This document shows, in pieces, positions 6,001 through 9,000 of a DNA stretch of 10,935 bases. Every line of letters begins with the position of its first letter. Position 1 is the first letter of the stretch. The DNA is from a virus (taxonomy: Duplodnaviria > Heunggongvirae > Uroviricota > Caudoviricetes), in IMG/VR virus record IMGVR_UViG_2534681940_000021. One strand, 5' to 3'. The position numbers were made by a program.

Positions 6001-9000
6001 TGAGGACATGGGGAGCGGCTTTTCGAAAAGCATTTTCCTCTATAGCAGTGATATTCTCTCGTTCATTCTTTGCGTATGCGTAGATGAAAAAGGCTTTTTC
6101 TGCAACGCGGTAAAAAATTATTGTCCGGTAACCGCCTGATTTTCCGCCACCACTTCGGGCTAATCTTTGTTTAATGACACCACTACCCAAATTTGCGGAT
6201 ATGATCCCCTTATCGGCCTGCTCCACGATTTTGCGCAGCGATTTATCGGAAATCCGATGTTTTCGGGCGAAACGTTCAAACCAGGCGTTTTTGAAAATTC
6301 GCATACCTGCCTCTGCATTTTATATAACACATAGTGTTACACCATGTGGACTATGGAGGCAATCTTTATTTGAGAATGCTTGCTGATTTATCGGTGTTCA
6401 AAAAATAGACGTAATTCAGATTGTATAAACGGCAGACAGAAAAAGTCATTGTTCTTGCGCATAAAATCCTCAGATTTACTGAGTGAAATGCGTCTCTTTT
6501 CATGGTTATAGTCCGAGAGAAGCGATAATGCATTTCATTTCCTTTACGTCAGGAGGTGTTGTGAAAATCCCAGCCAGTTTGATCCCGGGGTTTTATGAGA
6601 GCACGCGCCCGGTTGTTGTTTACAGAAACAGTGATGGTTCTTTTCAATGTGGTTTTGTTATGCGAAGTAATGAGGTTGTTGTAAGCCTTTCTCTTCTTTC
6701 TGAGGTAAGAGAGTTGGCAGGATTACCTGTTGATGATATTCAGAAGCAGCTATAAAATCAGGCTGACTTGAACCGTCGCTGAGAAACACCGTGCCACCGG
6801 AGATCCCGATGGCGCACGATAGCAGATTGCACAATTCTGCCGCCCTTGCCAGTAGGCAAGGGCGGTGTTCGCACGTATTTAAAACCGACTGGTTCCAGCA
6901 TCCCCTATGCACTGAAGAACAGGCCGAATGGCTGATCCAGTGTTACCGCAGGCGCGGATATGAGTTTGAGAAAGCCCTCAGCTTCGATCGTCGTCACTGG
7001 ATAATCTCCGTCAGGCTCCCTTATTCCGAACGCCCACCGCGTCCGTCCCGCACATTCCAGCAGCGCATCTGGAGGTAACGTGCGGGTATTACTTCGACCT
7101 GTTCTGGTACCGGAACTCGGTCTGGTTATCGTTAAGCCAGGCCGTGAATCAATGTCAGTATTCCATAACGGCAGAATATTGGTGGAGCCGGAACCGAAAA
7201 ACATGCGTGGTCTGCCGTCCGGAGTCGTTCCTGCCGTTCGCCAGCCGCTGGCAGAGGATAAAACATTACTGCCATTTTTCAGCGATGAGCGGGTTATTCG
7301 TGCAGCAGGTGGTGCAGGTGCACTGTCTGACTGGTTATTACGTCACGTGAAATCCTGCCAGTGGCCACACGGCGATTATCATCACAGCGAAACAGTCATT
7401 CACCGTTATGGTACCGGCGCGATGGTGTTGTGCTGGCACTGTGACAACCAGCTGCGCGACCAGACATCAGAATCACTCGATCAACTTGCTCAGCAGAATC
7501 TGGTTGCCTGGATGATTGATGTCATCCGTCACGCAATAAGCGGTACGCAGGAGAGGGAGTTATCGCTGGCCGAATTATCCTGGTGGGCGGCCTGCAATCA
7601 GGTGGTGGATGCACTACCTGAGGCAGTAGCGCGTCGTTCGCTGGGATTACCAGCGGAAAAAATCCGCTCCGTATACCGTGAGAGTGACATCGTACCGGGA
7701 GAACAGACAGCCATCAGCATACTGAAGCAGCGCACAAAAAATATTGCGCTGCCACTTCACGGCCACCAGCAACAAAATCCACCACAGAAAAAAACGGTTG
7801 TCAGTATCGCCGTTGATCCGGAGTCTCCTGAATCGTTCATGAGGCGGCCTAAACGTCGCCGTTGGGTTAATGAGAAATACACGCGCTGGGTAAAGACACA
7901 GCCGTGTGCGTGTTGTGGTAAGCCAGCTGACGATCCGCATCACCTGATTGGTCATGGTCAGGGGGGAGTGGGAACAAAGGCCCACGATATTTTCACGCTA
8001 CCGTTGTGCCGGGAGCATCACAACGAACTTCATGCAGACCCGCTGAAGTTTGAGAAAAAGTACGGCTCTCAGATTGAGTTAATTTTTCGTTTTCTTGATC
8101 ACGCCTTTGCGACTGGCGTGCTCGGGTAAAAGAGGTGACTGATGCTCATAGATTTGGTTTTACCTTACCCGCCGACGGTGAACACTTACTGGCGACGCCG
8201 TGGCAGCACATATTTTGTATCAAAAGCCGGGAAGCGTTATCGCCGGGCAGTGGCGCTTATTGTTCGCCAGCAGCGACTGAAATTAAGCCTGTCCGGACGG
8301 CTGGCAATAAAAATTATTGCAGAGCCACCGGATAAGCGCCGCCGTGACCTGGACAATATTCTGAAAGCACCGCTGGATGCGCTGACGCACGCGGGGTTGT
8401 TAATGGACGATGAGCAGTTTGATGAAATCAATATTGTACGTGGAAAGCCAGTATCTGGTGGACGTCTGGGGGTGAAGATTTACCCCATAATGCTTGAAGG
8501 GCAGGTCAAAAATGAAACTGGAAGATTTACCGAAATACTACTCCCCAAAATCCCCTGGCCTGACCGATGCATCGGCCTCAACGTCGAAAGATGCGCTGAG
8601 TATCACTGATGTGATGGCCGCGCAGGGCATGACACAGAATCGGGCTGAGATGGGGTTTTCTGCGTTCCTTGGGAAAATGGGCATTAGTATGAATGACAGA
8701 GAGCGGGCAACAGAATTGCTGACAGAATATGCACTCAGTCGGTGTGATCGCGTGGCGGCGTTAAGAAAACTCCCGGCAGAAATAAAACCGGCAGTGATGC
8801 GTATTATGGCTTCGTATGCGTTTGAAGATTATGCCCGTAGCGCGGCGAGCAAAAAACAGTGCCCCTGCTGTCACGGAAAAAAATTTATTGAAAGCGAGGT
8901 TTTTACAAACAAGATCCAGTATCCGGATGGTAAGCCGCCAGTGTGGGCAAAGTGCACAAAAGGCGTGTATCCGTCTTACTGGGAGGAATGGAAAAAAGTC

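Follow-up and report, generated by a model that had tools for sequence, protein, structure and literature searches.

A DUF968 protein encoded ahead of rusA and Q in a lambdoid Escherichia coli prophage: a probable HNH endonuclease

What is the function of a 349 amino acid (aa) protein of the DUF968 family whose gene stands directly ahead of a Holliday-junction resolvase gene in a lambdoid prophage? The question is raised by a stretch of DNA of 10,935 nucleotides (nt), hereafter the window (IMG/VR virus record IMGVR_UViG_2534681940_000021, Caudoviricetes). The window belongs to a lambdoid prophage of E. coli; from position 111 to 9554 it shares 99.5% identity with a prophage of the O157:H7 strain PV15-279. 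An initial annotation, made from the DNA alone, had placed a DUF968 protein of about 350 aa at 7080-8129, pointed to an HNH-like signature at its C-terminus and suggested a role in DNA processing or in defense. With moderate confidence we consider the gene to be a functional allele of the lambdoid-prophage gene ydfU, a grading which applies to the explanation as a whole. With the same reserve we propose that YdfU is a zinc-stabilized HNH endonuclease, probably a nickase, which would act together with RusA on phage recombination and replication intermediates. The gene and its parts are these:

7080-8129, + strand: ydfU-type gene with a GTG start, encoding 349 aa of the DUF968 family; two folded domains and a disordered linker
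7080-7751, + strand: N-terminal domain (aa 1-224) with a beta-hairpin at 105-110/113-118 and a helix at 119-125
7752-7814, + strand: linker (aa 225-245), disordered and fast-evolving, the joint between N- and C-domain alleles
7815-8129, + strand: basic lead-in (R254-R-P-K-R-R-R-W261) and predicted C-terminal HNH nuclease domain

The open reading frame (ORF) is intact and a GGAGG Shine-Dalgarno sequence is located 4 nt 5' of the GTG. In an O157:H7 prophage of 99.8% identity, RefSeq lists the same 1050-nt coding sequence under the name 'DUF968 domain-containing protein'. Family and size had been correctly annotated: the match to Pfam DUF968 (PF06147) reaches 257 bits against a cut-off of 27.8 (E 1.2e-76) and extends over aa 160-346, i.e., profile positions 1-171 of 171. 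PHROG 96 ("HNH endonuclease") matches the full length of the protein with E 4e-174. No Pfam family matches aa 1-159, and NCBIfam has no model for the 349-aa protein. E. coli K-12 YdfU (b1560, Qin prophage), a member of the same Pfam family, is 85% identical across all 349 aa. Among 5426 complete E. coli genomes 4545 (~84%) contain ydfU-like DNA, in up to eight copies each; it is also present in plaque-forming temperate phages and in Shiga toxin 2a (Stx2a)-converting phages.

As a prophage gene, ydfU is ordinary, very widespread and already classified, and to call the protein otherwise uncharacterized, as the annotation did, goes too far. A zinc-finger HNH motif in DUF968 proteins was noted some time ago (Curtis et al., 2014; PMC4118853). 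Subsequently, DUF968 was combined with DUF1364 (YbcO, PDB 3G27) in group 7 of the His-Me finger proteins; YdfU was named, RusA, Q and antirepressor genes were given as DUF968 neighbors, and for DUF968 a role as recombination nuclease, akin to NinG and to nucleases dependent on RecA, was hypothesized (Jablonska et al., 2017; PMC5714182). The HNH assignment in silico and the RusA/Q neighborhood are therefore published. The sole fresh angle is that the N-terminal domain may contain a second, degenerate HNH-like finger.

The case for a nuclease is carried by the C-terminal ~100 aa. All residues of the signature which had been listed initially, CxxC ... DDPHH ... H ... CREHHNELH, are indeed present: C276-A-C278-C279, D284-D285-P-H287-H288, H292 and C310-R-E-H313-H314-N-E-L-H318. 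The motif is far above chance expectation. In an alignment of 66 representatives, one per 50%-identity cluster, it is conserved across the family. C276 and D303 are retained in 65 sequences each, H288 in 61, H314 and H318 in 60 each, C310 in 55, C279 in 53 and D285 in 49, and position 313 is occupied by His (31) or Cys (20).

An AlphaFold2 model, calculated from an alignment of 31 full-length relatives (down to 26% identity), has a mean predicted local distance difference test (pLDDT) score of 85.5. In the C-domain the core has the HNH topology: two strands (285-288 and 306-309) precede a helix (311-319). The characteristics of the His-Me finger (HNH) superfamily are evident. The model displays the beta-beta-alpha-metal core fold; H288 is positioned at the end of the first strand and H314 and H318 are the predicted metal-binding residues of the helix, with a catalytic role likewise predicted; and the zinc knuckle CxxC...CxxH/C is recognizable in C276, C279, C310 and position 313, for which metal binding is predicted. 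We propose that D303, by its invariance and its position, fills the Asn slot of the HNH motif. The fold search which had been suggested as a check gave P1 Ref (3PLW) as the best match to the C-domain (score 8.6; 78 residues aligned, 26% identity). The HNH domain of IscB (6.8) and YbcO (3G27; 6.4, root mean square deviation 2.2 Å) follow, and Cap5, McrA and the HNH protein of GVE2 score lower than YbcO. Sequence searches of the PDB with the whole protein, the C-terminal third or the family profile returned C2H2 zinc-finger noise only, neither YbcO nor Ref.

A separate observation concerns three full-length relatives of ~26-29% identity, P0196, P0216 and P0250: their C-terminal HNH domain has lost the His-His pair and, in part, the glycine-rich loop. 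C276, D303 and the N-domain cysteines are retained. These proteins may be catalytically inactive paralogues.

Which characterized proteins come closest? P1 Ref, a RecA-dependent HNH endonuclease, is detected by BLASTP over aa 230-328 with E 5e-5 and 33% identity; its active-site mutant is H153A. Ref differs from YdfU in having no folded N-terminal domain and in its genomic context, a C1-controlled gene adjoining cre. A finger-loop insertion is a Ref feature according to the 2017 classification (PMC5714182). YbcO of DLP12 and phage 82 (PDB 3G27, Pfam DUF1364) aligns with the family profile at 83% hhalign probability. It has 96 aa and thus comprises the nuclease core only, without the ~245-aa N-terminal domain and linker of YdfU; its first zinc knuckle differs in sequence, and it is likewise biochemically uncharacterized. 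λ Rap (NinG), a branch-specific HNH endonuclease, belongs to the same superfamily and occupies a similar slot before Q, towards the end of the nin region. It is of a different Pfam family: NinG (PF05766) gave no Pfam match and an hhalign probability of 6%.

The most instructive relative is Gp16 of the Staphylococcus phage PhiNM1 (Pfam HNHc_6). Its HNH domain is homologous to that of YdfU (hhalign 95% probability, E 3e-8), it passes the DUF968 cut-off, and the motif C-x2-C / H / C-R-E-H-H-N-E-x-H is identical in both. Gp16 is encoded in the early operon of a phage which also encodes RusA. Its N-domain is NinB/Orf-like, and the N-domain of YdfU is unrelated to it. Gp16 is a nickase that associates with, and is stimulated by, the RecA of its host; zinc-ligand mutations abolish its growth-inhibition phenotype (Xu et al., 2026, Nucleic Acids Research; PMC12817073). 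These data also lend themselves to another interpretation, in which YdfU is a nuclease of host takeover: RecA-assisted nicking and replication inhibition would be directed mainly at the host chromosome, which would be attacked or stalled, and would favor the lytic cycle instead of serving phage DNA processing. Overexpression of Gp16 inhibits host growth and suppresses host replication (PMC12817073), and P1 Ref is reported to raise ciprofloxacin lethality in lysogens. We regard this interpretation as unlikely, and retain the recombination nuclease as the preferred one.

The N-terminal domain presents a different picture. Among 68 representatives C118 is invariant and C93 is conserved in 66, whereas position 101 is occupied by either His (43) or Cys (23) and position 121 by Cys or His (34 each). 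Because two near-invariant cysteines are accompanied by two positions which switch only between His and Cys, this tetrad has the signature of a metal site. It flanks the beta-hairpin and the helix with W119-H-x-D122-N123. His at position 102, the would-be equivalent of the general base, is kept in just 26 of the 68 sequences. The domain has weak HNH-like fold matches. The hairpin and helix are a candidate for a degenerate HNH-like zinc finger, probably used in binding of DNA or of a partner. Aligned against each other, the N- and C-domain profiles are collinear (C93 with C276, C118 with C310), but an internal duplication is not significantly supported (probability at most 2%); comparisons of the N-domain profile with Ref and with Gp16 were non-significant as well. 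In some database proteins (P0145, P0188, P0191, P0126 and others) the N-domain appears fused to a domain of a tail fiber, a tail tip or a portal; these are most plausibly chimeras produced by assembly or by deletion and tell nothing about function.

One may go further and view YdfU as two HNH-type modules: an ancient, catalytically dead N-terminal one, with the zinc site C-[H/C]-C-[C/H] and the general-base His lost, and a live, Ref/Gp16-like C-terminal one. They would form a built-in pseudo-dimer which nicks a single strand of RecA-made D-loops or of branched DNA. YdfU and RusA would then be a module of two enzymes for branch processing, taking the place of Rap (NinG) in a large proportion of the lambdoid phages of enterobacteria, Stx2a phages included. 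This extended proposal is tentative and, as a whole, doubtful.

Could both fingers be silent? YdfU would then be a zinc-finger DNA-binding or regulatory protein, e.g., one that assists Q or replication as an accessory factor. Inactive His-Me fingers which only bind DNA are known, e.g., Smad MH1, and the N-domain appears to be a degenerate finger of that sort. In addition, some database records designate such proteins 'antitermination protein Q' or 'transcriptional regulator', two phage records among them 'Phage antitermination protein Q'. Yet the C-domain retains the full catalytic set (H288, D303, H314 and H318, in the frequencies given above), and no Q-family Pfam matches the 349-aa protein. 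Some 607-aa database entries combine DUF968 and Q domains; we read them as read-through or fusion gene calls, from which the Q labels may originate. A silent YdfU is very improbable, and an active C-terminal nuclease is preferred.

Is the protein under selection? Ratios of nonsynonymous to synonymous substitution (dN/dS) are 0.06-0.11 in both domains where dS is unsaturated; both domains are under purifying selection. The linker, with pLDDT below 50 at aa 225-241, exceeds the domain values in two of three comparisons. It is also where alleles are joined. Counted from the alignment, YdfU of an Stx2a phage is ~95% identical to that of the window in the C-terminal ~109 aa and ~40% identical in the remainder; at the DNA level similarity sets in at nt 733 of the gene. 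Alleles of ydfU are mosaics that have recombined at the linker.

The neighborhood of ydfU provides the second line of evidence. Its immediate neighbors in the window are:

6791-7078, + strand: small ORF (phrog_1212, unknown function), its stop 1 nt ahead of the ydfU start
8142-8609, + strand: rusA, Holliday-junction resolvase (Pfam E 1e-16)
8512-9334, + strand: Q-type antiterminator gene, here read as interrupted by homopolymer indels (9108, 9239)

As initially annotated, the resolvase gene follows directly: rusA starts 13 nt past the ydfU stop on the same strand. The phrog_1212 ORF is conserved in Escherichia-type prophages only. Relative to the closest genomes the window has three 1-nt homopolymer indels, at 8508 (A6 to A5), 9108 (G2 to G3) and 9239 (A7 to A6). 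The deletion at 8508 stretches rusA, which normally ends at ~8516, from 124 to 155 aa, and the indels split the Q antiterminator into ORFs 8494-9168 and 9017-9316. The three indels are absent from all complete E. coli genomes, of which the best matches are 99.5% identical. Sequencing errors are the probable cause; failing that, Q would be inactivated in this prophage alone. About 80 nt past the end of the Q gene there is a strong terminator-like hairpin on the + strand (9414-9431; a 7-bp stem with 5 G-C pairs, then T7), which may be a terminator read through by Q.

How general is this arrangement? We examined 80 loci, one genome per species and nearly all from Enterobacterales, collected with a 13-sequence subset of the alignment as query. 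In nearly all of 76 loci the next gene downstream is of the Q-antiterminator type (Phage_antitermQ 46, Antiterm 18, DUF1133 17). RusA is the direct neighbor in few, downstream in 3 and upstream in 12 of the 76. From these immediate neighbors alone a RusA adjacency would appear rare. This was overturned by a wider local search with hidden Markov models (HMMs), in which RusA is located on the ydfU strand in 61 of the 80 loci; the usual spacer is one inserted gene of the antirepressor type (ANT, Rha or KilA-N). In contrast, NinG, NinB and NinH of λ were found in none of the 80 loci by local HMM search. In DLP12 the order is ybcO-rusA-ylcG-quuD, and in Stx2a phages ydfU-rusA-Q-methylase-tRNAs-stx2A. 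In K-12 Qin, ydfU is likewise positioned directly ahead of a Q-type antiterminator, ydfT, and upstream of ydfU are hokD and a toxin-antitoxin pair of the RelE type, but rusA is absent; in the window rusA stands between both genes, as in O157 and Stx2a prophages. Because of the surveyed loci and the arrangements in DLP12, Qin and Stx2a phages, a gene for a group-7 HNH protein which occupies the final slot of the nin region before Q, mostly paired with RusA, can be regarded as a recurrent lambdoid module, and it appears to be an alternative to λ NinG. A terminase-associated HNH protein of the HK97 gp74 type is a different matter: its gene adjoins those of terminase and portal, whereas ydfU is a nin-region gene which precedes Q and has the lysis genes downstream.

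This fixed position bears on the possibility that YdfU is a selfish, free-standing HNH homing endonuclease which moves between phage genomes. Free-standing HNH genes are frequent in phages, and the mosaic alleles with their joint at the linker might be taken as traces of such mobility. Yet the position ahead of Q is maintained in nearly all of the 76 loci and in many genera, purifying selection on both domains is strong, no architecture of the NUMOD, AP2 or HNH_3 type was seen, and the closest relatives are recombination nucleases. A homing endonuclease is hardly credible here.

The defense role which had been suggested alongside DNA processing fares little better. YdfU would be an anti-phage or superinfection-exclusion nuclease made from the prophage. 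HNH domains are common as defense effectors, Cap5 and McrA are among the fold matches, and moron-like toxin-antitoxin loci are nearby:

5196-5520, + strand: hok/sok type I toxin-antitoxin locus, HokD-like ORF (Pfam HOK_GEF, E 3e-23) and Rfam sok match (117 bits, reported on +)
5623-6304, - strand: type II toxin-antitoxin pair, toxin of Pfam RelE (PF06296, E 1e-47) and next to it an overlapping HTH_3 antitoxin-like gene

Of these, the RelE/HTH_3 pair resembles a moron inserted into the nin region. Yet no family in PADLOC-DB 2.0 matches YdfU at E up to 0.1, and no conserved sensor partner is seen; the conserved partner is a recombination enzyme. Promoter-like sites around ydfU are no more frequent than in shuffled sequences (4 found, 3.8 expected), and the only two upstream on the + strand, 6483-6512 and 6730-6758, precede small ORFs and not ydfU itself. 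In nearly all loci the gene is co-oriented and abutting in a conserved nin operon ahead of Q, and this operon is repressed in the lysogen. The HNH reading of the initial annotation is supported, and its suggestion of DNA processing is the likelier one, in the form of phage recombination or replication; no defense signature was found, and a defense function must be rated as very remote.

Based on family, fold, motif conservation, purifying selection and synteny, we propose the following for YdfU as a recombination nuclease. The gene would be co-transcribed with rusA and Q from the early (nin) operon of the phage. A structural zinc held by C276, C279, C310 and H313 would stabilize the C-terminal HNH (beta-beta-alpha-metal) nuclease; the general base is predicted to be H288, the last residue of the first strand, and D285 together with H314 and H318 is predicted to hold the catalytic Mg or Mn. 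The N-terminal ~225 aa, attached by a flexible basic linker, would bind DNA or a partner. YdfU would nick recombination and replication intermediates, i.e., D-loops, forks and branched concatemers, possibly assisted by RecA as are its closest characterized relatives, P1 Ref and PhiNM1 Gp16. Alongside RusA it would promote recombination and clear branches before packaging, from the slot which is taken by Rap (NinG) in λ and by YbcO in DLP12.

Several observations weigh against this proposal. In a Foldseek search against the PDB all matches were non-significant (E above 0.1). The C-domain alone scores 16.8 bits against the 26.9 of RecA_dep_nuc (PF16786), the Ref family, and HNHc_6 (PF16784) is missed just short of its threshold (24.2-26.4 versus 26.6 bits). 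Some family members, as mentioned, are devoid of the His-His pair. RusA is not nearby in 19 of the 80 loci, K-12 Qin included, and RusA synteny is linkage, not cooperation. Ref is dispensable for growth of P1, and the real role of YdfU may accordingly be subtle. Lastly, the literature contains no experiment on any YdfU-type protein; the y-ome review of 2024 lists YdfU (Qin prophage) as uncharacterized.

If YdfU indeed is a Ref/Gp16-like, possibly RecA-assisted nickase, a gap in the y-ome would be closed and it would become clearer how Rap-less lambdoid phages process branched DNA. In Stx2a phages the ydfU-rusA-Q module is located ~3.2 kilobases upstream of the Shiga-toxin genes; in phage Stx2_EH1910 (L085) the region concerned is 2829-7318. 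In a genome-wide association study of 2025 ydfU and a Q homologue were associated with hemolytic uremic syndrome, probably because the module is linked to stx2A.

The window has further elements. On the + strand, Rfam matches to isrK (4310-4383, 52 bits) and to C4 antisense RNA (4409-4492, 70 bits) are located directly upstream of an ORF at 4545-5093 which encodes an antirepressor-like protein with an ORF6N domain. The ensemble looks like an antirepressor cassette controlled by small RNA; the ORF6N protein also has weak matches to PADLOC PDC-S05. Downstream of Q, past position 9554 where the match to the O157 reference prophage ends, the small RNA STnc100 is matched in Rfam at 10100-10274 on the + strand with 82 bits.
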